A stretch of 64,000 bases of DNA from contig NZ_JAPNXM010000007.1 in assembly GCF_049472675.1 (NCBI RefSeq), positions 25,521 to 89,520 on the forward strand, given 5' to 3'. The DNA comes from Deferribacter thermophilus. Lineage in GTDB: Bacteria; Chrysiogenota; Deferribacteres; Deferribacterales; Deferribacteraceae. This document shows, one piece after another, positions 13,479-59,044 of the stretch. The translations under genes were made by a program, and so were the position numbers. Under the pieces are notes generated by a model. The model ran no database searches. It had not been told where the DNA came from and saw only the letters and a list, made by a program, of their open reading frames with translations. The stretch's first letter is position 1, and the number at the start of each line of letters is the position of its first letter.

Positions 13479-13993
13479 TAAACTATCTCCGCATTGTGAA
13501 CTTTTTCCAACTGCATCAAGCCAAATTTATGACCATCTTCATCAAGGCCTATAATACAATCCTTTGGAACAATCACTTTATACCCTCTACTTACAGCATC
13601 AGCAACAGTGTACATTACACAGATATTTGTCACAAGCCCTGTAACGATTAGCTGTTCAACACCCAAATCTTTCAAGATTTCATCTAAATTTGTGTTAAAA
13701 AAGCCTGAATACCTTGTTTTTTCAACAACAATATCACCATCTGAAGGTTTTAACTCTTCAACAACTTCAGCACCCTTTGTCCCTTTTACGCAGTGATGTG
13801 GCCAGATTTTAAACTCATCATCATCTTCATCATGAGCATCACAAACATAAATAACTGGATACCCCTCTTTTCTTGCTTTATCTATTTCTCTTTTAATATT
13901 TGGGATTATACTCTTAGCATTTGGCACCTGCAATGGAGCACCTTCTAAAACAAAATCGTTTAACATATCGATAATTATTAATGCCTTTTTCAT
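13478..13993 (-). CDS. Isochorismatase-family cysteine hydrolase (nicotinamidase-like)
   Basis: MKKALIIIDMLNDF N-terminus and catalytic Cys in a VTGLVTNICV context. Confidence 0.8.
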   Translation of the reverse strand: MKKALIIIDMLNDFVLEGAPLQVPNAKSIIPNIKREIDKARKEGYPVIYVCDAHDEDDDEFKIWPHHCVKGTKGAEVVEELKPSDGDIVVEKTRYSGFFNTNLDEILKDLGVEQLIVTGLVTNICVMYTVADAVSRGYKVIVPKDCIIGLDEDGHKFGLMQLEKVHNAEIV

Positions 13994-14833
13994 TTTTGCC
14001 TCCTTAGAGACTTTAAAATATCAAGCTGGTTTTTATAACTTTTATCCTCATCAAAAGGGGTTTCCAAAATGCCCAAAACACCATCTAACCTTTCATCATT
14101 CACAAGTTTCTCAAAAAATTCTAAACCTAATAAACCTCTACCGATATAGGCGTGTCTATCTATTTTTGATCCACACTCTTTATTTGTATCATTTAGGTGA
14201 AAAACTTTTATTTTATCTTTAAAATTAGTAAAAAAAGTATCAATTACTTCATCATATCTGTTTTTTAAATCATACCCTGCCGCATACATGTGGGCAGAAT
14301 CAAGACACACACCAATCTTTTCAGGAAATTTAGAATTTTGAATTATATAATCTATGCTCCCATTTATAACCTAAATTTGAGCCTTGGCCTGCTGTCACTT
14401 CAAGCAATGTCATAACATTAAAATGATACTCAGAATAAACTCTGTCAATATTTAGAACTATTTTATTTAACCCTTCTTGCTCGCCAATTCCTAAATGAGA
14501 GCCAGGATGCATTACATAAAAAGGAACATTCAGTTGATCACATCTTGACAACTCATCAATAAAACATTTAACTGACTTTTCCTCTGTCTCTTTTTTCGGA
14601 GAACAAAGATTTATCAAATAGGCACTATGGGCACAAATTCTATCAAAGCCTAAATTTTCTGCAAAAACTTTAAATTTATTTACATCTTTATCTGAATATG
14701 GCTTAGCAACCCACCTATTTGCATTTTTTGTAAAAATTTGTAAACACTCACAACCATCACTTTCTGCAAGTTTTAGGCTGTTGAAAACACCACCAGAAAT
14801 TGATTCATGAGCTCCAAGAAGCATGAGGCCCAC
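13990..14833 (-). pseudogene. nfo: Endonuclease IV (nfo) interrupted by a single frameshift near 14350-14358
   Basis: The 5' ORF ends ...TAGQGSNLGYKWEH. The 3' ORF continues in another frame as ..IDYIIQNSKFPEKIGVCLDSAHMYAAGYDL, which aligns with the Nfo core ..EHLAAIIDG..VGVCIDTCHAFAAGYDL. The two pieces together make about 280 aa. Confidence 0.7.
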
Positions 14834-39136: not shown

Positions 39137-39445
39137 ATGAAAAAAATATTTCTTGTATTAATCATATGTTTTTCATTATCTATAATGAGTTTTGCAAAAG
39201 AAGAATCTAATAATCTACCTAAAGAGCAAGTTGTTAATTTAAAAACAGGATATATAAAAAGCTTTAAAAATGAATTCATATCTTTGGAAGATGGTTTCTA
39301 TTTTTATGTTGATGAAAATACTGTAATTATTAACCCTGAAAATAGAAAAGTAGATAAAAAATTCTTAAAATCTGCATATAAAATTAAATATAAAAACAAC
39401 GGAAATTATGTATATTACATAAAAATATTATCATTAGTTAAATAG
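39137..39445 (+). CDS. Small secreted protein translationally coupled to pilY1
   Basis: 102 aa with a signal peptide. Its stop overlaps the pilY1 start. Confidence 0.45.
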   Translation: MKKIFLVLIICFSLSIMSFAKEESNNLPKEQVVNLKTGYIKSFKNEFISLEDGFYFYVDENTVIINPENRKVDKKFLKSAYKIKYKNNGNYVYYIKILSLVK

Positions 39446-42400
39446 TGAGGATTGCTATGGGCAAATGCATTACAATATCTTTAATAATAATTTTAATGTG
39501 TTTTTTTAATCCAGTATTATCTCAAGCTGCAAAACCATCAAACAACTCAGATGCTGGACAAATGGTTACTTACTGCTCTATACCACCATTTGTTTCCTCA
39601 GCTATTCAGCCAAATGTGCTAATAATACTGGATAATTCTGGAAGCATGTTTGAATTTGTATATAAAGAAGAAAAATCTACAAGATCATACTCTAACGATT
39701 GTTCAAATGATGCTACAGTTTATTCAGGATACAAAGATAATGAAACCTATTTTGGCCTTTTTGATCCTAATAAGAAATACTCATATAATACTACTAATGA
39801 TTATTTCTATGAAATAGAAAATGGTGAATGGAGTGGTAATTTTTTAAATTGGTTAACAACCAGGAGAATAGATGCAGTAAAAAAAGTATTAACTGGAGGA
39901 AAATATATCATCACCAATGATGGAAATATTTTGTTAACTGCAACAGATAATTTTGATAGAGATAGTCGAAAAATATTAGAAAATAATGTACAAAATCTCA
40001 CTGGACTTAATAATTATAACGATCAAGGTGCTTATTTTTACTTTTACAATAATAATAATAATAATAATAATAACTTTGTTTATTTTGATGTTAGACCTGC
40101 AACATGGAATAATAACTGTTGGGTAGTTGATAATAATCCTACAACATTTAGAGTTGCTTTGAAAGTCGAAACACAACCCTCTGGGATAATACAGAAAACA
40201 TGGGATAAAGTAAGATATGGACTTTTCACCTTTAATTATGACGATGGAGGTCATTTAGTTTCTGAAATAGGGAGTAAATATGATAATCCAACATTTATTG
40301 ATGACATAAATAAAATCACTCCGTCAACTTGGACTCCACTTGGAGAAACTCTATATGAAGCTACTTTATATTTTAAAGGAGATAAAACTTTTTATAACGG
40401 TGATTATACATATAATAGCCCTATCCAATATAGTTGTCAGCAAAATTATGTTCTTATTTTAACTGATGGTGAATCAACAAGGGATAAAAACTTTCCAAAC
40501 AAACTTGATAGTAATGACCCAAATAGCACAATTGATAATCTTCTTGACATTATTGAAGAAAATGAGGGGTTTAATGATAACAGATTACATAATGACTTAA
40601 ATGATTCCAATGGATCATATAGCTTAGCTGCAGTATCTTATTGGGCTCATACTACAGATTTAAGAGAAGACTTAACAGGTACTCAAAAATTAAATATTTT
40701 TACAATCTTTGCATTTGATGATTCGGAAAACGCAAAAGATTTACTTAAACTTTCAGCAAAATACGGTTCTTTTGCTGATAATAATTTTAATAATTTGCCA
40801 GACAATTCAAACGAATGGGATGCAAACAATGATAATATTTCTGACAACTATTTCGAGGTCAATAAAGCAACTGATTTAGAAACAAGTTTAAGTACAACAA
40901 TTGCTAAAATTTTGCAAGGGGCAGCAGCAGGTTCTGGTGTAGCCCTCATGACTGATAGGACAAGTAGCACAAGTATTGCTATCCAAGGTTTATTTGAAAA
41001 CAAAAAGGATATTGATAATTCAACATTGACATGGATTGGACGTTTATTTGGGTGGTGGGTTTATGCAATAGAAAAAGATAATGAAAGTATAAAAGTTAAC
41101 ATTAGAGAAGATACAATAAATAATAAAAAGTTTAAATTAACAGAAGATAGAATTTTAACATATGATTATGACGTATTAGATAATAAATTAGTGCTAAAAC
41201 TTATTACATGTGATGACAATGGCTCTGGTCTAATTGATAATTCTAGTTGTAAAACTTTCTATTCTTTTGACGACATTACACCAATATGGGATGCAAGTGA
41301 AGAATTATTAAATAGAGAAGCTGATAATAGAACAATTTACACATATAATGATAATGGAGATCTTATTCCAATTGATGATTACAATAACTCAGAATTGTTT
41401 GGTACAGATAATACCACATATATCACATCTTTAATAGATTACATAAAAGGTATTGATTCTGATAACTATAGAAATAGAACAATTAAAGTTGATAATGAAC
41501 AAAAAGTATGGAAGTTAGGTGACATTATCCACTCTAGACCTATGTTGGTAAAGTATGATGATTATACTGTTGCTTATGTTGGAGCAAATGACGGAATGCT
41601 TCATGCATTTAAGGTAGGTTATGCTAAAAAATTAAGAGATGATCCAGAGGGTTATTTAGCAGTCTTACAAAATTCTAAAAATGACAGTGGACAGAATGAA
41701 ATAGGTAAAGAGCTATGGGGATTTATACCACATTCTGTTATCCCATATTTAAAATTTCTGGCAGACCCAAATTATTGCCATTTATATTATGTGGATGCAC
41801 AACCATATATAATAGAAGAAGATGGAAAGAAAATCTTAATCGGCGGATTAAGATTAGGTGGGGGTTGCTATTGTAGTAAGCAGGAAGCTGCTGATGAATG
41901 TGTCAAAAGTCCTGATAACGAAAATGGACTATCGTCATACTTTGCACTAGACATTACAGATCCAGAAAATCCAAAATTTCTGTGGGAATTTAATCATAAA
42001 GACTTAGGTTTTTCATACTCTGGTCCTGCTTATATAAAACGCCCCGAAGGTAAATATATAATGTTTTCTTCAGGACCTACTACATATGATGGTCACTCCT
42101 CTAAGTCATTGAAATTTTTTATTTTAAAATTAGATGAAGATTTCAAATTAATAAATAATACTCCAGATGTTTTAGACGGTAAAACTCAAAACGCATTTGG
42201 TGGTAAACTATATACAACTGGTATTGATAAAAATGAAGATGGTTTTACTGATTTTATAGTAACAGGTATTGTAAAAAATGTAGGTAAAACAAATTCTCAA
42301 GGTGGTTTAGTCGTAATCCATACCAAAGGAGGAGATCCATCAGCTTGGACTGTTTATCAAAATTATTATAATTTTAGCCAAAACCCAACCGTTTCTAAAG

Positions 42401-43113
42401 TCGAAGCAGGCAAATGTTTTAACTTAGGTTATTATTTGTTTTTTGGTAGCGGTAGATATTTTTATCCTGGAGATGATGAAGGAACCTCAGGTGTTGGAAA
42501 CGAAGAGAATTATATTTACGGAATACCTTTTGACTGTGATGTTGAAGAAGGTTGCAAAGGGACTGTTAACAATATTAAATCTGTAGAGCTATTAGATGAC
42601 CCTTGTAATGACCTAACAAATTTTGAAATCACAAACAATGAGTCTAAGGAACTAGGGTGGAAAATAAAATTAGACCCTACTGATAATGTATATTTAAAGG
42701 AAAGAAATATTATAGACCCTGTTTTAGTAAAAAATAAAAACAATCCAGCTAATAGATATACTAATAATAGAGATTACTGGACATCGCAAATCATTACATT
42801 TATTACAAACAAATATGAAAAAGATCCATGTATTTTAAAAGGTAAAAGTAAAATATGGGCACTTAACTGTGCTACTGGTGGTCCTTTAAGACCAGACAAT
42901 ATTACTCACAAAATTTGTAGTAATTATCAAGTAACTGACGACTTTGCTATATTTACTACAGCTAGTACAGGTGAAATTTCTATTGTAACAGATGACGATG
43001 TAGGAACTGAAAGATTCATCGAAAAAGATAGTAATATTATAGCTTCTGATTTAGGTGAAGACTTAACTGGTAACAATAGAAAAGGTAGAATACTTTTATG
43101 GATAGAAAAATAA
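39445..43113 (+). CDS. pilY1: Type IV pilus tip-associated adhesin, PilY1/PilC-like, with an N-terminal vWA domain
   Basis: Signal peptide. vWA MIDAS motif LIILDNSGSM. C-terminal PilY1-type region with a Ca-binding-like loop DKNEDGFTD. 1222 aa, followed by four prepilin genes. Confidence 0.7.
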   Translation: MRIAMGKCITISLIIILMCFFNPVLSQAAKPSNNSDAGQMVTYCSIPPFVSSAIQPNVLIILDNSGSMFEFVYKEEKSTRSYSNDCSNDATVYSGYKDNETYFGLFDPNKKYSYNTTNDYFYEIENGEWSGNFLNWLTTRRIDAVKKVLTGGKYIITNDGNILLTATDNFDRDSRKILENNVQNLTGLNNYNDQGAYFYFYNNNNNNNNNFVYFDVRPATWNNNCWVVDNNPTTFRVALKVETQPSGIIQKTWDKVRYGLFTFNYDDGGHLVSEIGSKYDNPTFIDDINKITPSTWTPLGETLYEATLYFKGDKTFYNGDYTYNSPIQYSCQQNYVLILTDGESTRDKNFPNKLDSNDPNSTIDNLLDIIEENEGFNDNRLHNDLNDSNGSYSLAAVSYWAHTTDLREDLTGTQKLNIFTIFAFDDSENAKDLLKLSAKYGSFADNNFNNLPDNSNEWDANNDNISDNYFEVNKATDLETSLSTTIAKILQGAAAGSGVALMTDRTSSTSIAIQGLFENKKDIDNSTLTWIGRLFGWWVYAIEKDNESIKVNIREDTINNKKFKLTEDRILTYDYDVLDNKLVLKLITCDDNGSGLIDNSSCKTFYSFDDITPIWDASEELLNREADNRTIYTYNDNGDLIPIDDYNNSELFGTDNTTYITSLIDYIKGIDSDNYRNRTIKVDNEQKVWKLGDIIHSRPMLVKYDDYTVAYVGANDGMLHAFKVGYAKKLRDDPEGYLAVLQNSKNDSGQNEIGKELWGFIPHSVIPYLKFLADPNYCHLYYVDAQPYIIEEDGKKILIGGLRLGGGCYCSKQEAADECVKSPDNENGLSSYFALDITDPENPKFLWEFNHKDLGFSYSGPAYIKRPEGKYIMFSSGPTTYDGHSSKSLKFFILKLDEDFKLINNTPDVLDGKTQNAFGGKLYTTGIDKNEDGFTDFIVTGIVKNVGKTNSQGGLVVIHTKGGDPSAWTVYQNYYNFSQNPTVSKVEAGKCFNLGYYLFFGSGRYFYPGDDEGTSGVGNEENYIYGIPFDCDVEEGCKGTVNNIKSVELLDDPCNDLTNFEITNNESKELGWKIKLDPTDNVYLKERNIIDPVLVKNKNNPANRYTNNRDYWTSQIITFITNKYEKDPCILKGKSKIWALNCATGGPLRPDNITHKICSNYQVTDDFAIFTTASTGEISIVTDDDVGTERFIEKDSNIIASDLGEDLTGNNRKGRILLWIEK
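40048..40074 (+). repeat. (AAT)8-AAC trinucleotide tract encoding N9 inside pilY1
   Basis: Direct observation: FYFYNNNNNNNNNFVYF. Confidence 0.9.
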
Positions 43114-43559
43114 TGAATAAAAAAGGGATAACTCTAATAGAATTACTTGTAGTAATATCAATTCTTGGTATAATATTAGCTATAGCAATACCAAATTATA
43201 ATAAATGGAAGATAAAGCATGAAAGAGAGAAAGAGTTGAGACAACTATATTCCATAATACAACAATACAGGACAAAAGCTTTTACTGAAAAAACAAGCTT
43301 CACACTTGAATTTCCTTCACAAAATAAATTAGACATTAAAAATGACAATGGAACTATCGTTAGCTCAATAACATTTAAAATATCCTTTGATAATCCAAGC
43401 ACTATAACAATTGACGATAGAGGTACTCTATCGAATATTTCAATCAAATTAATTAGTGATTCAATAAATGATTCACTACCTTACAATTGTATTGTCAGCA
43501 ACGGTATAAGAGTTAGATTAGGGAAAATAGATGGTGGTGGTAGCTGTGTTGCAAAATAA
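43113..43559 (+). CDS. Type IV minor pilin / pseudopilin (FimT/GspH-like)
   Basis: Prepilin leader MNKKG|ITLIELLVV with Glu+5. Start overlaps the pilY1 stop. The ORF track gives an upstream start at 43098. Confidence 0.7.
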   Translation: MNKKGITLIELLVVISILGIILAIAIPNYNKWKIKHEREKELRQLYSIIQQYRTKAFTEKTSFTLEFPSQNKLDIKNDNGTIVSSITFKISFDNPSTITIDDRGTLSNISIKLISDSINDSLPYNCIVSNGIRVRLGKIDGGGSCVAK

Positions 43560-43965
43560 AAAAGGATTTACATTAATAGAAATGATGGTTAGTTTATTTA
43601 TTTTTTCTGTGGCATTACTTGGGCTTGTAGCTTCGATGATAACTGTCAAAAAAATGAATATGAGAAATAATGTCAGAAATATTGCAATTGAGCAGGTTAA
43701 TAATGAAATCGAGAAATTAAGAGCATACGGTTTTAACAAGATAGATAATTTAATTGGCTCCTGTGAAAATATAGAGTGCTCCCCTGCAAACGACAACTGC
43801 AGCATGAAAGCCCAATATAGAAATACATGGATAAGTATAGGGAAATCTTTTACTGTAAATACTTCTGGCACTACTAAAGAAATAGTTATTACCTCTTGTT
43901 GGGAACTTTTTGGTAAAAAATATACTTATACAACTCAAACCTATATCGCAAAGGATATACAATGA
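43531..43965 (+). CDS. Type IV minor pilin (PilV-like)
   Basis: ..KKG|FTLIEMMVSL prepilin motif. The true start is probably an internal TTG/GTG just upstream of QNKKG. Confidence 0.65.
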   Translation: MVVVAVLQNKKGFTLIEMMVSLFIFSVALLGLVASMITVKKMNMRNNVRNIAIEQVNNEIEKLRAYGFNKIDNLIGSCENIECSPANDNCSMKAQYRNTWISIGKSFTVNTSGTTKEIVITSCWELFGKKYTYTTQTYIAKDIQ

Positions 43966-44882
43966 ACAAAAAAGGTTTAACATTAATAGAACTCTTAATA
44001 GTGATTTTTTTATTGGCTATTATATTATCAGCTGTTTATATAACCTATACTACACTTTTAAAAGATTACAGAAAAGAAACTAAGAATATAGAAACAGAAA
44101 TAGAAAAAATGGTGGGACTTGATATTTTAAGACTTGATATCACCCATGCTGGATACGGTATATCAGATAATGAAACATCAAAAGTGATAGAATGTATTAA
44201 TTGTGAAGATCCTGATAATATTTCTTTTATAATTAGATCCACTTTTAATGTTACAAACAACGATACCCAACACTGGATCTTTGTAGATGCTGATGATAAT
44301 AAAACAATTGGAACGCCAGATAACAATATAAAATATGTATATATTGATATTAATAAAAAACTTTTAAAAGATAGTGCTTTGTGGACTAACAAGCCTAACA
44401 GTGGGAAATATATTGCTTACCCTGTACAAGACAATGCTACAGGTTGTTCTAATCAAACTTGTACAAAAATAACTTACAAACTAAGCACAACTAATTTACC
44501 TGAAACATGTAATCCTAATACCTTTAAATTACTCAGGGCAGTAAATAATGGTAATGGAGATCCAATTTTAGATTGTGTTGCAGATTTTAAATTAAGATTT
44601 GATTATGATAAAAATAACGATGGAGAAATAAACAGTAACGAAGAATTATTAAGTTTTGATAATATAAGTAGTGATAATTCAACTGCATTTAGAAATAAAC
44701 TAAAAAGAGTCAGAATATTTATACTTTTACAAGATGGCGGATATGATAGAGACTTTACTTTTCAGGGAGCTGACAGTAACAACAAAATAACTGTTGATGG
44801 TGTAAAATTACAACTTCCAAACAACTATACTCATTATAGATGGAAAACTGTTGTGTATACAATAAAACCTATGGATTTATGA
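43962..44882 (+). CDS. Type IV minor pilin (PilW-like)
   Basis: MNKKG|LTLIELLIV prepilin motif. 306 aa. Confidence 0.65.
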   Translation: MNKKGLTLIELLIVIFLLAIILSAVYITYTTLLKDYRKETKNIETEIEKMVGLDILRLDITHAGYGISDNETSKVIECINCEDPDNISFIIRSTFNVTNNDTQHWIFVDADDNKTIGTPDNNIKYVYIDINKKLLKDSALWTNKPNSGKYIAYPVQDNATGCSNQTCTKITYKLSTTNLPETCNPNTFKLLRAVNNGNGDPILDCVADFKLRFDYDKNNDGEINSNEELLSFDNISSDNSTAFRNKLKRVRIFILLQDGGYDRDFTFQGADSNNKITVDGVKLQLPNNYTHYRWKTVVYTIKPMDL

Positions 44883-44883
44883 T

Positions 44884-45315
44884 ATGAAAAAATTAGCAAA
44901 TTTACCTAAATTAAACAATAAGGGTATTGCTCTTTTAACAACTCTTATTTTATCGCTAGTTGCTTTAGGTTTTGTGGCAGCTATAATGTATATGCTAAAC
45001 TCATCTACAAACATTTCTGGAACACATAAAAGATACCAAAATGCACTGATGGCAGCAAGAGGTGCTAGTGAATATATAATGGACAAATTAGTATCTGGCG
45101 ATGAATCAGATTTATGCAATACTACAACATGCCCTGAAAATACACCAATTGATTTGAGCGATTTATTCAGCGATTATGAAGTAAAAGCTACTTTATTAAA
45201 CAGATATGAAGATACTGTAAGTGATATTATAATTTATTCCTTTCGTGTTACTGCAACCAATAAAAACAATCCAAAAGAAAAAAGTATTATAGAGTTTGTA
45301 TATAAAGTTGAATAA
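44884..45315 (+). CDS. PilX-like minor pilin lacking Glu+5
   Basis: ..NNKG|IALLTTLIL prepilin-like N-terminus without E5, as in PilX/GspK-type proteins. Confidence 0.55.
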   Translation: MKKLANLPKLNNKGIALLTTLILSLVALGFVAAIMYMLNSSTNISGTHKRYQNALMAARGASEYIMDKLVSGDESDLCNTTTCPENTPIDLSDLFSDYEVKATLLNRYEDTVSDIIIYSFRVTATNKNNPKEKSIIEFVYKVE

Positions 45316-50470: not shown

Positions 50471-51229
50471 ATGTTTGAAAATTTTTTAAGCACCTTGGAC
50501 AAGACAGTCAAGTTGCAAACTATTCCAGTTGCAACAAAATTCATCAAAGAAAGCAGCCAAATTGAAGGGATCAAAATACGATTAAAAAACAAAAAAATCA
50601 ATATTTGTCAGCAAATTGCATATTCAAGGTATTACGGATGGTCAACTTATGTTGAGGGCAACTACAGCTATTGCGTATTAGGTGCAAGCAACTGTGGATT
50701 AATTTCCACACCTGAAAGAGTAATTGAAGGGAAAGTAAATTGTTCAATATATCAAAAAGATATTAATGCTGCCAAAAAGATGCAAGAATGCATGCCAAGA
50801 GTAAAAGAAAGATTTACAGGCTTTTTAACTTACCCATTAACAAAACCTATTGAAAATATCATAACTGATGTAATAGTGATTTATGCTAATACTGCTCAAA
50901 CCATGCGTTTTCTTCAGGCATTTTTATATCATGAGGGTGGTGAATTTGTAATGAAAAGCAGTGGTGATGCTGGTGTTTGTTCAAGATGTGTTGTAGAAGC
51001 CTATCTAACAAATGAACCAAAAATTGAAATTCCCTGCCTTGGAGATAGAAGATTTGCAATGGCTCAAGATTTTGAATTAGCGATAGGTATCCCATACAAA
51101 AAATTGGATAAAGTAATTGAAGGATTACTGGAAACACATAAAGCTGGTATAAGATATCCTATCCCTTTTGATATGAAAGAGCATTGTGAATTACCAAAAG
51201 AATATACCACATTAGAAAATGATGCATGA
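50471..51229 (+). CDS. DUF169-family protein
   Basis: 252 aa. The pattern resembles DUF169/COG2043. Called from memory. Confidence 0.5.
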   Translation: MFENFLSTLDKTVKLQTIPVATKFIKESSQIEGIKIRLKNKKINICQQIAYSRYYGWSTYVEGNYSYCVLGASNCGLISTPERVIEGKVNCSIYQKDINAAKKMQECMPRVKERFTGFLTYPLTKPIENIITDVIVIYANTAQTMRFLQAFLYHEGGEFVMKSSGDAGVCSRCVVEAYLTNEPKIEIPCLGDRRFAMAQDFELAIGIPYKKLDKVIEGLLETHKAGIRYPIPFDMKEHCELPKEYTTLENDA

Positions 51230-51237
51230 GGTGAAAC

Positions 51238-51903
51238 TTGAAGCGGGATGAAGTAAAAAAGTTTGATGGAAAAAACGGCAATAGAGCATATATAATTTAC
51301 AAAGATAAAGTTTATGATGTAACTGATAGTAAATTTTGGAAAAATGGCATTCACATGTCAAGGCATAAAGCTGGTGAAGATTTAACTGATTTCATCTCAA
51401 TGGCACCCCATGGTGATGATGTTTTAGAAAGGGATAATATTAAGTTTGTTGATGTATTAGAACCTGAATCAATCAATGATAAAGAAGATAAAAAAGAGCT
51501 CTTAAGAAAGCTTTATAGTAAATTACACCCCCACCCTATTTTTGTGCATTTTCCAATGGGTATATTTTACTTTGGAGCATTAATGCAACTGTTATATCTT
51601 TTAACTAAAAACAGTACCTTTGAAAAAAGCGGATTTTATGCATTAATAGTTGCTACAATATCTATATTTCCTACAGTAACTTCGGGCATTTTAAGCTGGT
51701 GGATAAATTACGATTTAACATTAACAAAAATCTTTAAAAACAAAATAGTTTATTCTGTTATACTTACCGTTTTATCCATTTTATTAATTTTTATTAAATT
51801 GCAATCATCATCTATTATAATTTATACAGTCGGTTATTTTTTACTTATACCCATACTTACTTTTATTGCATACAATGGTGGTAAAATTACCTGGCCTAAT
51901 TAG
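51238..51903 (+). CDS. Cytochrome b5-like heme/steroid-binding domain fused to a 4-TM membrane domain
   Basis: N-terminal ..FDGKNGNRAYIIYKDKVYDVTDSKFWKNGIHM..HKAGEDLT resembles COG4892. The C-terminal half is hydrophobic. Confidence 0.55.
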   Translation: MKRDEVKKFDGKNGNRAYIIYKDKVYDVTDSKFWKNGIHMSRHKAGEDLTDFISMAPHGDDVLERDNIKFVDVLEPESINDKEDKKELLRKLYSKLHPHPIFVHFPMGIFYFGALMQLLYLLTKNSTFEKSGFYALIVATISIFPTVTSGILSWWINYDLTLTKIFKNKIVYSVILTVLSILLIFIKLQSSSIIIYTVGYFLLIPILTFIAYNGGKITWPN

Positions 51904-51925
51904 TTTTTAATTTTGGAGGAATGAA

Positions 51926-52168
51926 ATGGATAAAAAGTCTAAAATAAAGGCCTTAGAGCAAATGATAGAAGTAGTGCTAATTAGAATACCAAAAGAGATT
52001 GAGGCCATGAGATTTTATAAATCAGCAGCAGAAAAAGCTGTAGATGAAAATGCAAAAAAACTTTTTGAATCTTTAGCAGAGCAAGAAAAAGGGCATGAAG
52101 CAGAACTGAGAAGAATACTAGAAAATTTAAAAGCTCAATTATCCGAATTAAAAAATTCCAGCTCTTGA
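51926..52168 (+). CDS. Small ferritin/rubrerythrin-like helical protein
   Basis: 80 aa. E..H pattern (EQEKGHEAELR) as in ferritin-like half-domains. Weak. Confidence 0.4.
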   Translation: MDKKSKIKALEQMIEVVLIRIPKEIEAMRFYKSAAEKAVDENAKKLFESLAEQEKGHEAELRRILENLKAQLSELKNSSS

Positions 52169-52205
52169 TGTTGTAAATAATTTAAAAATCTGTTATCATA
52201 ATTAT

Positions 52206-52886
52206 ATGAATAACTTAATAAGTTCATTTAAATTACAAGAAAAACATATCGAAATTTTTAAAAAATATGGAAATGAACTTAATATAAAAACAGGAGAATT
52301 CCTTTTTTATGAAAATGATGAAGCAAAATCTGCATATCTCTTACTTGAAGGTGAACTTGATGTTTTAATCAAAGATAGCGTTGATTCTCTACGTTTAATA
52401 AATAAGCTTCATCCAATCACTCTTTTTGGAGAAATGGGCTTATTTACTACAGGTAAAAGAACAGCGACAATCAGGGCAACCAAAAATTCTAAAATAATAG
52501 AAATTGAATATAAAACCTTTCTTAGCATTGCATCTAAAATTCCAGCAGTAAATCTTAATATGATTAAAGAATTAAGTAAAAGACTAAAAGAATGTAACGA
52601 AAAATTAATAGAAAATATTGACTATCAAGCCAAAACTAAAACCATAACATATATTTATAAAGTTTTTAAAGAAAGATCAAAAATTGAGTTTGAAGAGAAC
52701 TTAGAAAATATCTTACCTATTATAAATATAGAAAAGAGTGAGCTATTAAAAACGCTTTTCTTTTTAGAAAAATTGAAAGTTATTTATCAATTAGATTTAA
52801 TTGACAACAACAAATTAAAATTTAATATTAATAAGAACTTAATTGAAAAATATTTTTTCAAATTTCTTTTAGGTGAAATAAAATAA
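52206..52886 (+). CDS. Cyclic-nucleotide-binding domain protein
   Basis: FGEMGLF..KRTATIRA cNMP-binding signature. No canonical C-terminal HTH. Confidence 0.6.
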   Translation: MNNLISSFKLQEKHIEIFKKYGNELNIKTGEFLFYENDEAKSAYLLLEGELDVLIKDSVDSLRLINKLHPITLFGEMGLFTTGKRTATIRATKNSKIIEIEYKTFLSIASKIPAVNLNMIKELSKRLKECNEKLIENIDYQAKTKTITYIYKVFKERSKIEFEENLENILPIINIEKSELLKTLFFLEKLKVIYQLDLIDNNKLKFNINKNLIEKYFFKFLLGEIK

Positions 52887-54479
52887 ATGGGATACACAGT
52901 CACTGCAAAATCATTGGAAGAAGCTTTTGAAAAAGCTCAAAAGTATTTTCAAAGAAACCTTTCTGAATTAGATTATAAAATTGTATCTATTAATCCAAAT
53001 GATGAAAATAAATATACTTTAGAATTTAATATTAAAGAGACAGTTATAGGTAAATCTGGAAAATTATACGAAGAGATTTTCACTGACGAGTTTGAAGTTA
53101 TTATTTCAGATGACGAGATGAAAGCTTATCTATTTATCCCTGAAAAACCAAAAAAAAATATAGACAAAGATTACTTGGTTAATTTATTAAATGAAAACAG
53201 TGTAAAAAGTGGTATTCTTACAGATGTTTTAGAGAAAATTGTACTTTTTCTAAAAAATGACAAACCTTTAGATTCATCAATATTAGTTGCAAAAGGAAAA
53301 CCTCCAAAAAATGGAAATAATGGAGAGCTTATTTTAAAAAGCAAATCAGACGATATCTTAGACTCATTTTTAACAGCAGATGAAATAGATGACAAAATAG
53401 ATTATAAAGAAGTTTTTAAAAAAAGGCTTTTTATTGTTGAAGAAAATGAAGAAGTAGCAATGATAATCCCCCCTTCCAAAGGGGAAGATGGCTTTACAGT
53501 AACAGGGAAAGTATTACCTGCAAAAGATGGAAAGCCTGTAGAAGTTAAATTAACAGATAATTTAATACTCAAAGACAACAAAATTATTTCTAAAATCAAA
53601 GGGTTGCTTTTAGTAAAACAAACAGATAATCTTAACTATGAAATAGATGTTTCAGAAGTATTTATAGTTAATGAAGATGTTGATTATTCTACTGGGAATA
53701 TAGATTTTCCTGGCTCAGTCATTATCAAAGGGGAAGTAAAAACTGATTTTACTGTAAAAGCTGGAAAAGATGTAATAGTCCAATCTGTCTCTGGAAACAT
53801 TTTAGCTGAAGGGAAAATTATAGTTAAAGAAGGTGTCACGGGAAAAAGTTTTGCAAATAGAAATATAATTAAGGCTGATGAGTTAGAAGCAAGTTATATA
53901 CAATTTTCAAATATCACTGTAAACAAAGATATAAAAGTAAAAAAATATATTAGAGATTCAATAATTTATAGTGAAGGGAAAGTAGAAGTAACAGGTACAC
54001 CCGGAATGGTTTATGGAGGGAAAATAAATGCTTTAGAAGGGATTACAGTAAAAATATTAGGCTCACCTTCATTTACCAAAACTGTAGTTTCCACTGGTAT
54101 ATCAACTAAAATTTTAAACGATATTTCCACTTTATTAGCAGAAAAAAGTGCAATAAATGAACAACTAACAAAAATCAGACTCTATCTTGGTAATGCAGAT
54201 CGTCCATTAGTAAGGGATAAATTAAAAGAAAAAATAGAAAAATTGAAAGCAACAAAATTTGAACTCAACAAAAAATTAATGAGTATAGAAGTAAAACTTA
54301 AGGAGTTGTATGAAGAAGTGCAAAAATTCAAAAACTCAAAAATTGAAGTTTTAAAAGAGGCTTATCCTAATGTAAAAATTATTATTGGGGAAGCTACCTT
54401 ATTATTAGAAAAGAAGTTAAGAAATGGATATTTCTTTTATAATAAAGATAAAAATGCAATTGATTATATGTTGAAATAA
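52887..54479 (+). CDS. FapA/DUF342-family protein
   Basis: 530 aa. Central beta-solenoid-like repeats and a C-terminal coiled coil. Confidence 0.55.
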   Translation: MGYTVTAKSLEEAFEKAQKYFQRNLSELDYKIVSINPNDENKYTLEFNIKETVIGKSGKLYEEIFTDEFEVIISDDEMKAYLFIPEKPKKNIDKDYLVNLLNENSVKSGILTDVLEKIVLFLKNDKPLDSSILVAKGKPPKNGNNGELILKSKSDDILDSFLTADEIDDKIDYKEVFKKRLFIVEENEEVAMIIPPSKGEDGFTVTGKVLPAKDGKPVEVKLTDNLILKDNKIISKIKGLLLVKQTDNLNYEIDVSEVFIVNEDVDYSTGNIDFPGSVIIKGEVKTDFTVKAGKDVIVQSVSGNILAEGKIIVKEGVTGKSFANRNIIKADELEASYIQFSNITVNKDIKVKKYIRDSIIYSEGKVEVTGTPGMVYGGKINALEGITVKILGSPSFTKTVVSTGISTKILNDISTLLAEKSAINEQLTKIRLYLGNADRPLVRDKLKEKIEKLKATKFELNKKLMSIEVKLKELYEEVQKFKNSKIEVLKEAYPNVKIIIGEATLLLEKKLRNGYFFYNKDKNAIDYMLK

Positions 54480-54480
54480 A

Positions 54481-54520
54481 TAAAAAAAAGGGCTACAAAA
54501 TGCAGCCCTTAACCCTTTAT
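54481..54520. terminator. Bidirectional terminator hairpin (AGGGCTACA-aaa-TGCAGCCCT) between convergent genes
   Basis: 9-bp stem with one mismatch, flanked by A8 upstream and a T-rich tract downstream. Confidence 0.65.
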
Positions 54521-56229
54521 ATTTTAAATCTTTTTATTTGAGTTTGTAATTCTTCAGCAAGTTTTGATAACATCTCAACAGCAGTAGCCATTTCTGAAGC
54601 AGCTATTGAATTTTCATTAATTACTTTCGAAATACTTTCTATTGATCTTGCCATCATTTCTGTTGCTTTTGCTTGTTCATCGGTTGCTCTAGCTATATTT
54701 TCAACTTCCATCGAAACAGTTTCTACATTTTCTTTAATTATATCAAGAGCTTCTTTTGCTTCATCAGCTTTTACTTTTCCTATTTCAACCTGCTCCACCC
54801 CTTCACTCATACTTGCCACAGCCCCACCTGTATCCGCTTGAATATTTTGTATCATTTCGGTAATATCTTTTGTAGCTCTCATTGTTTTTTCAGCTAGCTT
54901 TCTTACTTCATCAGCAACCACAGCAAAACCTCTACCATGCTCACCAGCTCTTGCTGCTTCAATTGCAGCGTTTAACGCTAAAAGATTCGTTTGATCAGCA
55001 ATATCATTAATAACCTGAATTATCTCACCAATTTGCTCACTTGATTCTCCAAGAGTCCTTACAGTCTCTGCAGCTTGAGAAACTGTTATTGCAATTTGAT
55101 CCATCATCTGTTTTGTCTCTTCTACCAAGGCATGACCTTTAACAACAGATTCTTTTGCTTCTGCTGCACTTTTTGCCACATTTGCAGCATTTTGAGCTAC
55201 TTCCATAACAGTTGCATTTACCTCTTCTACTGCGCTTGCTGTTGCAGCTGCCTCTTCACTTTGTTCTCTTGCACCAGCTGCAATAGCCTCAGAATTTGAA
55301 GCTAGTTGTGCCGAAGTAGAAGCTAGTGATACCACCGATTCAGAAACTGAGCTTAAAACATTTCTTATATCATCCACCATTTTATTTACAGCTTTTGCAA
55401 CAGCACCAACCTCATCATCATACTTTACATCCACTTTTGCGGTAAAATCACCATTTGCAATTCTTGCCAAGGCTGCATTAATATTATCAAATCTTGAGAA
55501 TATCAATTTTGAATTTAAAATATAAAGCATTGCAATAATTATAATTAAAACAATTATTAAAACAGAAAAATCTCTTGTGATATTTTTATTTATCATAGCA
55601 TTAATTGGAGCTAGAGGAATAAAAATTTCAAATGCACCATGTACTTCACCTGCTTTCCAACCCTCCATTTTAACTCCTGTTGGATCCAACCCTTTGTCAT
55701 TCCCCCAATATTTCTCACTCTCAGCTGGATCTCCATGACACCATTCACACTCTTTAGAAAGTCTTATGGCTTTAAAATATCTTATATAACCAGAATCTTT
55801 ATCTATTAAAACCTTCTCAGGGGTATTTCCAGTGCCTGTATCTTTACTTTTTAACTCAGATAATACTTCTTCCTCTAAAGAATCAGGTTGATTATCAGGG
55901 TTTCTTGGTGAAACTTTAGGAACTTTAAATTTTATACCTAACTCTTTTGCCTTACTTTTAATTATTTTCATTGAACTAACAACAGGAACTGTCAATAAAA
56001 ACTTATTTACATCCTTTTTAATTTCATCAAAATTGTATAAATTAGCGTCCCATTTTTTAGCCATAAACTCTCTTGTCCCTTCAGCAACTACAATAATATT
56101 TCTTGCCCTTTCAACTTGAGATTCAATAGCAGTTTTTTTTGCAATTTTTGCGCTAAACAGAAATAAGATACTAAATGAAATCAACAAAATTACAGATATT
56201 ATTAGAGCTAACTTTAATTTTAAACTCAT
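54517..56229 (-). CDS. Methyl-accepting chemotaxis protein with a periplasmic sensor domain containing a CxxCH heme-c motif
   Basis: TM1 - about 190-aa periplasmic domain containing CEWCH - TM2 - HAMP - MCP signalling domain. Confidence 0.85.
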
Positions 56230-56284: not shown

Positions 56285-56697
56285 TTAATTTTTTTCAATA
56301 TTCTTTAAAAAGGAAACAAGAACAATATCTGTTTTTAAAATATGATTTTCATACCATTCTCTTAACGATTTTAATACTAATAAAGTATCAGCTTTATTCA
56401 TACCACTTAAAATTTTTAATCTTTTTTTAGCAAAATCTTTTCTAAACTTTCATGTTCCAACTTATGTACTTCATAATCTGGATAGTTATATTTTTGCATA
56501 AACTCTTCTTCAGTTTTGAAATGAGTTTTTACATAGTTTTCTAAAAATGTTAAGGAATCTGAAATAGCTTTTTCACCCTCCCCTACTTTAAAGTATTTTT
56601 CAATTTTTGCCAATAAATAAAACATAGCTCCATGCTGCTCATCAATCCTATCTATCCCAGTTATTAAATTCTCTGGTAAATATTCTTTCATTAACAC
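56285..56697 (-). pseudogene. Hemerythrin-like protein interrupted by a -1/+2 frameshift at or near an A7 (T7 on +) homopolymer
   Basis: The 5' ORF (93 aa) ends ..HKLEHESLEKILLKKD*. The hemerythrin C-terminus (KDFAKKRLKILSGMNKADTLLVLKSLREWYENHILKTDIVLVSFLK) continues in another frame, starting inside the overlap. The T7 run is at about 56425-56431. The joined length is about 135 aa, typical for hemerythrin. Confidence 0.6.
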
Positions 56698-56707
56698 CTC
56701 AAAAAAT

Positions 56708-56759
56708 CCCGGCTGAATGCTTCAGAGGGGAGGAGGGTAGAAGCATAGGATCAGCCGGG
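56708..56759 (-). terminator. Long GC-rich hairpin (CCCGGCTGA-ATGCTTC...GAAGCAT-TCAGCCGGG) followed by T6 on the - strand
   Basis: 16 perfectly paired bp in two stem segments with a 17-nt loop. On the - strand the loop is C/U-rich (CUACCCUCCUCCCCUCU). The U-tract is followed immediately by the GAGGTG RBS of the hemerythrin gene. Confidence 0.55.
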
Positions 56760-56828
56760 CAAAAAGAAGCATTGTTATTAATTATATTTTATACAAACTT
56801 TAAAACTTTTTCAACTTTTATTTAAATT

Positions 56829-58868: not shown

Positions 58869-58882
58869 TTATCACCTCAAAC

Positions 58883-58913
58883 AAAAAAAGCCTTCCGGCG
58901 GAAACCGGAAGGC
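58883..58913 (-). terminator. Hairpin (GCCTTCCGG-cggaaa-CCGGAAGGC) plus a U7 tract on the - strand, 14 nt upstream of the panB start
   Basis: Perfect 9-bp stem. On the - strand a T7 run follows, then the TTGAGGTGAT RBS and the panB ATG. Terminator-like element in a leader position. Confidence 0.5.
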
Positions 58914-59044
58914 TATTTATCGCACAAATATACTTTTCATAAATATAGCCGTCTCGGTCCCGCCAGGGATCCAAGCGTTTCGAGCTGTAAAATATATAAT
59001 TTTTCACATTTGTCAAATAATTTTTTAAAAAAATAACTAAAAGC

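Follow-up and report, generated by a model that had tools for sequence, protein, structure and literature searches.

Within a 64,000-nucleotide stretch of Deferribacter thermophilus DNA (contig NZ_JAPNXM010000007.1, positions 25,521 to 89,520; hereafter the window), we examined a minus-strand gene at 54517–56229, recognised from the list of open reading frames (ORFs) and from Pfam, which encodes a methyl-accepting chemotaxis protein (MCP, a chemoreceptor) of 570 residues with a single CxxCH motif in its periplasmic sensor. We find that this receptor is an ordinary member of a large, recently described and curated family, sCache_heme (PF11845); from its sequence, the sensor is very probably an sCache_heme domain with bound heme c, and by analogy with relatives that have been studied, the receptor probably senses a gas or redox state by means of that heme. 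To this explanation taken as a whole, an sCache_heme chemoreceptor engaged in heme-based sensing of nitric oxide (NO) or redox state, we give a probability of about 0.8. The value of the finding is mainly one of correct annotation: an sCache_heme (PF11845) chemoreceptor, likely a periplasmic NO/redox sensor, in a thermophilic Deferribacter that respires Fe(III) and nitrate.

Family, fold and architecture of the receptor

The sensor, residues 32–205 (55615–56136, minus strand, as are all features of the gene), matches PF11845 (Tll0287-like, formerly DUF3365) with 104.7 bits and an E-value of 7.6e-30, against a gathering cut-off of 24.1 bits, and the match spans profile positions 2–144 of 144. 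When the PDB was searched by phmmer with the sensor as a single sequence, no match was returned even at E 10; profiles built from its homologues reach Tll0287 (5B82) at E-values of 4.4e-7 and 9.8e-7, in alignments that run through CxxCHG. An AlphaFold2 model made from an alignment of 22 homologues is confident (mean pLDDT 91.9, pTM 0.84), and Foldseek, given this model, ranks 5B82 first (E 2.9e-6), above the Cache domains of WalK and PctD. In the model the CxxCH occupies a short helix (residues 159–165) between strands 148–156 and 196–205, which are the last two beta-strands of the domain. Deshpande, Xing, Gumerov, Crane and Zhulin describe sCache_heme as a Cache fold with a CxxCH-bearing helix inserted between beta3 and beta4, the CxxCH being 99% conserved, and they include in it both Tll0287 and the Geobacter receptors GSU0582 and GSU0935 (bioRxiv 10.64898/2026.02.01.703092). 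Of the marks of that family, the receptor shows a full-length profile match, a CxxCH helix inserted in a Cache fold just before the last strand, an extracytoplasmic location, and fusion to HAMP and MCP domains; with its host phylum, Deferribacterota, among those in which the family is most enriched, we see no difference between the receptor and sCache_heme at the family level. Covalent heme is seen in the solved structures of three PF11845 members and heme c incorporation has been demonstrated for two more; Tll0287 and the two Geobacter sensors are among the members with proven covalent heme c, and it is from this family membership that we infer heme c attachment in the present receptor.

The layout of the protein is that of a classic chemoreceptor, as the earlier note on this DNA had proposed, and hydropathy and Pfam agree on it. 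A first transmembrane (TM) segment lies at about residues 5–26 (56152–56217; Kyte-Doolittle, 19-residue window above 1.6), inside one continuous helix (residues 3–61) of the AlphaFold2 model; it is followed by an external segment of about 194 residues (about 27–220, by hydropathy) and by a second TM segment at about residues 221–240 (55510–55569), placed by hydropathy and falling within model helix 207–243. The HAMP domain covers residues 242–289 (55363–55506; PF00672, E 2e-10), and the best Pfam stretch of the MCP signalling domain covers residues 382–536 (54622–55086; PF00015, E 1.6e-50), so that the HAMP domain and conserved signalling hairpin by which methyl-accepting chemotaxis proteins are known are both present. 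Because the sensor is flanked by the two TM segments, it lies on the side of the membrane on which heme c is attached.

The motif itself, CEWCH at residues 161–165 (55735–55749; assigned from sequence, helix 159–165 and conservation), is the single CxxCH of the receptor, in keeping with the earlier claim of exactly one in the periplasmic domain, and C161 and C164 are the only cysteines among the 570 residues. No second CxxCH occurs in any of the 60 window ORFs (18,914 residues); amino-acid composition would predict 0.037 over all 60, and 0.0004 per domain of the size of the sensor. Every relative taken from genome contigs (82/82), gathered with a search pattern that did not include CxxCH, retains the motif, as do 146 of 147 unbiased cluster representatives. 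Taken with the expectation from composition, this conservation places the motif far beyond chance. The earlier note would have dropped the heme assignment had the motif fallen in a TM or linker segment or been missing from homologues; by hydropathy and the AlphaFold2 model it sits on a short helix of a well-folded periplasmic domain, and the homologues retain it. From family membership, C161 and C164 would be the thioether-forming residues, with H165 as the proximal ligand. Gly166 and Pro168, adjoining the motif, are invariant and resemble cytochrome c: a profile of the receptor's own subfamily (described below) weakly matches 8yts, a class I cytochrome c (E 0.044), along a stretch of about 45 residues that runs from the CxxCH to a GEVHG, a match that is consistent with the cytochrome-derived insertion that has been proposed.

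The earlier note regarded covalent heme c in a chemoreceptor sensor as rare, and this view does not hold. According to the preprint, PF11845 counts more than 5,000 InterPro and about 20,000 NR sequences. More than half of the Deferribacterota genomes carry a member, and the family is enriched in this phylum as it is in Nitrospirota, Desulfobacterota, Campylobacterota and Aquificota; the outputs to which it is commonly joined are MCP, kinase and GGDEF/EAL modules, the MCP fusion being a standard architecture (bioRxiv 10.64898/2026.02.01.703092). Our own searches agree. A word-indexed search gave 22 relatives, all 22 with PF11845; a scan of GTDB species representatives gave more than 599 pattern matches and at least 500 confirmed relatives, in hosts from Deferribacterota, Planctomycetota, Acidobacteriota, Bacteroidota/Ignavibacteriota, Chlorobiota, Spirochaetota, Desulfobacterota and others; and phmmer, run exhaustively against 1.84 billion cluster representatives (clustered at 50% identity), gave 795 clusters with E≤1e-3, 142 of them with E≤1e-30. 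The MCP signalling domain was found in 77/81 genome-derived homologues, the other four being cut by contig ends, and in 121 of 146 cluster representatives, the remaining 25 being mostly short and probably partial proteins. Given family counts this wide, heme-c chemoreceptors of the sCache_heme type are widespread rather than rare.

Candidate sixth ligands and the subfamily signature

Tll0287 of Thermosynechococcus elongatus is soluble and stands alone, its heme axially ligated by His and Cys with Cys68 as the sixth ligand, whereas the receptor's sensor is fused to a chemoreceptor and has no cysteine besides C161 and C164. When the profile alignment is extended without gaps, Cys68 corresponds to V83 of the receptor, a position held by V or I in all homologues; 118 of 147 homologues have no further sensor cysteine, and in none of the 147 does one stand at the position extrapolating to Cys68. 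Lacking the axial cysteine of Tll0287, the receptor groups with the signalling-type members of the family, those with a labile or open distal side, and it has the corresponding ('Cluster 2') layout of TM helices and HAMP/MCPsignal output without an axial Cys.

On sequence conservation, the receptor belongs to a tight subfamily made up of MCPs only, whose own signature follows the CxxCH at residues 182–201 (55627–55686) and includes M188 and H197; this signature is not discussed in the accessible text of the sCache_heme preprint (bioRxiv 10.64898/2026.02.01.703092). M188 is conserved in 134/147 and H197 in 132/147 unbiased homologues, and where the receptor has this Met and His, Tll0287 has Ala and Arg, respectively. 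At a third position, that of M56 in the N-terminal helix, 83/147 homologues have Met. M188, H197 and M56 are each a candidate for a labile sixth ligand, and none of the three is invariant. We also considered M87 as a general ligand and rejected it, the position being W, I, F or L in most homologues. M188 and H197, about 90% conserved and not found in Tll0287, are specific residues to mutate in order to identify the sixth ligand.

Proposed signal and alternative explanations

We envision the following sequence of events. The receptor would be exported and one heme c linked by the cytochrome-c maturation machinery to Cys161 and Cys164, with His165 as the proximal ligand. By analogy with the Cache_heme-HAMP (CHH) receptor of Pseudomonas azotoformans and with Geobacter GSU0582/GSU0935, a diatomic gas, most probably NO from nitrate or nitrite respiration, would then bind the distal face of the heme, and/or the heme would undergo a change of redox and spin state. 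The altered conformation of the sensor would be relayed through TM2 and HAMP to the signalling tip, modulating CheA and so steering swimming.

CHH, the one signalling-type member that has been tested, shares with the receptor a membrane anchor, two TM helices, a periplasmic sCache_heme domain without an axial Cys, and a HAMP domain, but it ends at HAMP and signals to a Ser/Thr kinase, whereas the receptor runs on into a full MCP signalling domain. CHH is an experimentally supported model for NO binding and transmembrane signalling: it releases NO with a k_off of 6e-4 s-1 and forms mixed five- and six-coordinate nitrosyl species, it autoxidises quickly and forms no stable O2 complex, and its output is altered more by NO than by a redox change alone. 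A stand-alone family protein of Pseudomonas putida shows fast NO dissociation. The Geobacter sulfurreducens MCPs GSU0582 and GSU0935 (3B47, 3B42) have the same design as the receptor, a periplasmic single-heme-c sensor joined to an MCP; the earlier note had named Geobacter sensors as relatives, and rightly so, as the sCache_heme preprint places them in the same family and they carry covalent heme c. They are high-spin when oxidised and low-spin when reduced through binding of Met60, which NO or CO (carbon monoxide) displaces. Desulfovibrio vulgaris DcrA is likewise an MCP with a periplasmic c-type heme and is a proposed sensor of redox potential and O2. Of the redox or gas (O2/NO) taxis that the earlier note had read into the motif, the NO and redox part is the likelier by analogy with tested members. 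NO would be plausible as the signal in a nitrate-respiring host, and we put its being the physiological one at a little short of an even chance; CO, on the same analogy, would be the alternative gas. O2 is a less likely signal: in CHH, NO is held tightly whereas no stable complex with O2 is formed.

Several observations weigh against heme-based NO/redox sensing as we have framed it. The case for NO depends on a single distant protein, from Pseudomonas, whose output is of another kind. No ccm/ccs genes, che genes or other cytochrome-c genes were found in the 64-kb window by Pfam scans of its ORFs of at least 100 residues and of two shorter ones near the MCP, and the capacity for cytochrome-c maturation is deduced from the genus. 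Deferribacter genomes have clusters of multiheme c-type cytochromes, a Nap nitrate reductase and a hydroxylamine-oxidoreductase-like multiheme enzyme, and given these cytochromes a maturation system must exist in the genus; Deferribacter desulfuricans has 14 MCPs and six che clusters. Finally, M188 or H197, with conservation near 90% in the homologues and no counterpart in Tll0287, could either one be the sixth ligand, in which case the heme would be hexacoordinate and better suited to redox sensing.

This last point leads to the strongest alternative, namely that the receptor is a sensor of redox potential (energy taxis) in which the heme alternates between high-spin Fe(III) and low-spin Fe(II) by gain or loss of M188, H197 or M56 and which reports the periplasmic redox state or the availability of acceptors such as Fe(III) and nitrate rather than a gas. 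GSU0582 and GSU0935 behave in just this manner, Met60 acting as an on/off switch upon reduction; M56 lies on the N-terminal helix at a position similar to that of Met60 and is Met in more than half of the homologues (83/147); M188 and H197 are strongly conserved; the host genus respires Fe(III) and nitrate; and the stand-alone family members look redox-type. The NO response of CHH, which exceeds its response to redox change, speaks for a gas. We consider a pure redox sensor a real but doubtful possibility, and one that overlaps in part with NO/redox sensing as proposed here.

One could go further and suppose that the MCP-only subfamily as a whole carries a hexacoordinate heme, with His165 and either M188 or H197 as ligands, on a longer insert that resembles cytochrome c and spans about 45 residues, and serves as a periplasmic redox-potential receptor, directing taxis toward Fe(III) or nitrate, and not as an NO sensor, with a hemerythrin encoded next door in some lineages as its partner in sensing or buffering O2. 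We hold this combination to be unlikely. Were it true, the conserved promoter-hairpin element upstream of the locus (described below) could be a shared regulatory leader.

The hemerythrin in question is also the basis of a further alternative, that the receptor is an O2 sensor which pairs with the upstream gene as a two-component aerotaxis unit. The earlier note had the receptor directly downstream of a same-strand hemerythrin gene, and an ORF of that family does lie there, but it is frameshifted. The gene (56285–56691, minus strand; PF01814 and comparison of frames) is broken by a 1-nt deletion at about 56448–56450, so that the annotated remnant, at 56416–56691 (PF01814, E 1.4e-9), has 91 residues, while the last 44 codons lie in another frame, running down to 56285, 55 nt before the MCP start. 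The out-of-frame part includes WYENHILKTD, a segment that carries the final iron ligands, His and Asp, and the window gene thus does not encode, in one frame, the complete diiron ligand set of a hemerythrin of about 130–140 residues. Comparison with the DNA of L081, a Logan metagenome contig, traces the deletion to one A missing from an A-run (GAA-AAG). L081, the closest relative, has the same pyrC-pyrB-pyrR / panBCD arrangement, an intact hemerythrin of 135 residues, and, at the same spacing of 55 nt, an MCP 91% identical to that of the window. The remnant is identical to an NCBI D. thermophilus protein of 91 residues (P0024), the intact orthologue (P0023) being 135 residues long.

An intact and equally spaced hemerythrin in L081 favours a functional pairing, as does its occurrence in an unrelated Phycisphaerae metagenome-assembled genome (MAG), where an intact bacteriohemerythrin gene follows an sCache_heme MCP within about 50 nt (L054, 5965–8003), an independent adjacency in the opposite gene order. 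Against it stand the loss of two iron ligands in the window gene, with the same truncated protein annotated in D. thermophilus, and the finding of no hemerythrin at the syntenic Deferribacter abyssi locus or at 79 of 80 other loci (within 6 kb of the MCP), as well as the autoxidation of tested family members, which form no stable O2 complex. Promoter-like matches at the locus are at chance level (11 sites found, 11.0 expected) and neither support nor exclude co-transcription of hemerythrin and MCP. The earlier argument for two O2- or redox-binding modules in one transcription unit is therefore weak, and with a single occurrence among the 80 other loci we rejected adjacency to hemerythrin as a general feature. 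From its distribution among lineages and from the frameshift, we conclude that the hemerythrin-MCP pairing is lineage-specific and has decayed in this genome; a paired O2 sensor we judge quite improbable. Desulfovibrio vulgaris DcrH, an MCP with a hemerythrin domain, does tie hemerythrin to chemotaxis, but there the hemerythrin is a domain of the receptor, whereas here it is a separate and broken gene.

It is scarcely credible that the CxxCH is no heme site but a product of chance, a disulfide or a metal-binding site within an ordinary Cache domain for small molecules: the fold is indeed of the Cache type, and small molecules are what most such domains bind, but the motif is expected by chance 0.0004 times per domain, it is conserved almost absolutely across phyla, it stands beside a cytochrome-c-like Gly166 and Pro168 (the weak 8yts match), and five family members carry heme, covalently in three solved structures and by incorporation of heme c in two others.

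No sCache_heme MCP, GSU0582 and GSU0935 included, has an assigned physiological signal. For structural and ligand studies, a thermostable orthologue from an MCP subfamily that is tightly conserved and spans phyla would be a good candidate.

Locus, RNA elements and other features of the window

The closest genomic match to the locus is the syntenic panB-panC-panD-MCP locus of D. abyssi, in which the sensor is 75% identical. Between panD and the ribosome-binding site of the hemerythrin gene lies a long hairpin (56701–56760, minus strand; fold energy −30.7 kcal/mol, z −5.2, in a window of about 31% G+C) with 17 bp, a C/U-rich, anti-Shine-Dalgarno-like loop of 16 nt, UACCCUCCUCCCCUCU, and a U6 tail. 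The window has one copy of it, and in three Deferribacter genomes (L001, 5767–5826; L081, 4933–4992) the hairpin hardly varies while its flanks have diverged; it is accompanied by a promoter-like TTGAAA-17-TAAAAT at 56786–56814 on the same strand. Rfam gave no match for this hairpin and nothing at threshold near the locus. It could terminate panD, act as a leader or attenuator, or represent a small RNA.

The 5' leader of panB (58875–59039, minus strand) contains a terminator-like hairpin (GCCUUCCGG...CCGGAAGGC and a U-run) just before the start codon. Matches to the 'pan' motif of Rfam, below threshold at 24.6 and 23.0 bits (gathering score 36.2), occur in the right place and orientation in the window and in L081 (2675–2825), and the panB leader may be a divergent leader of a pantothenate operon.

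At the other end of the locus, right behind the MCP stop codon, a hairpin with a T-run (54488–54510, minus strand; 10-bp stem with 5 G-C pairs, T-rich tail) is the predicted terminator of the MCP itself. Convergent with the MCP, on the plus strand at 50471–54479, is a series of genes with a redox and signalling flavour, for a DUF169 protein, a cytochrome-b5-like/DUF2231 membrane fusion, a rubrerythrin-like protein of 80 residues, a cNMP-binding protein and FapA (flagellar assembly protein A), the last of which ends 37 nt from the MCP stop codon.

Two regions elsewhere in the window merit mention. At 13990–14833 (minus strand), two ORFs, of 167 and 106 residues and separated by 19 nt, correspond to the N-terminal and the C-terminal half of a single PF01261 xylose-isomerase-like TIM-barrel profile, and from sequence the pair looks like a second split or pseudogenised gene. 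At 39137–45315 (plus strand), a protein of 1222 residues without a Pfam match stands beside three small proteins with an N-terminal pilin methylation motif, in what looks, on these motifs, like a type IV pilus or pseudopilin cluster with an uncharacterised giant component.
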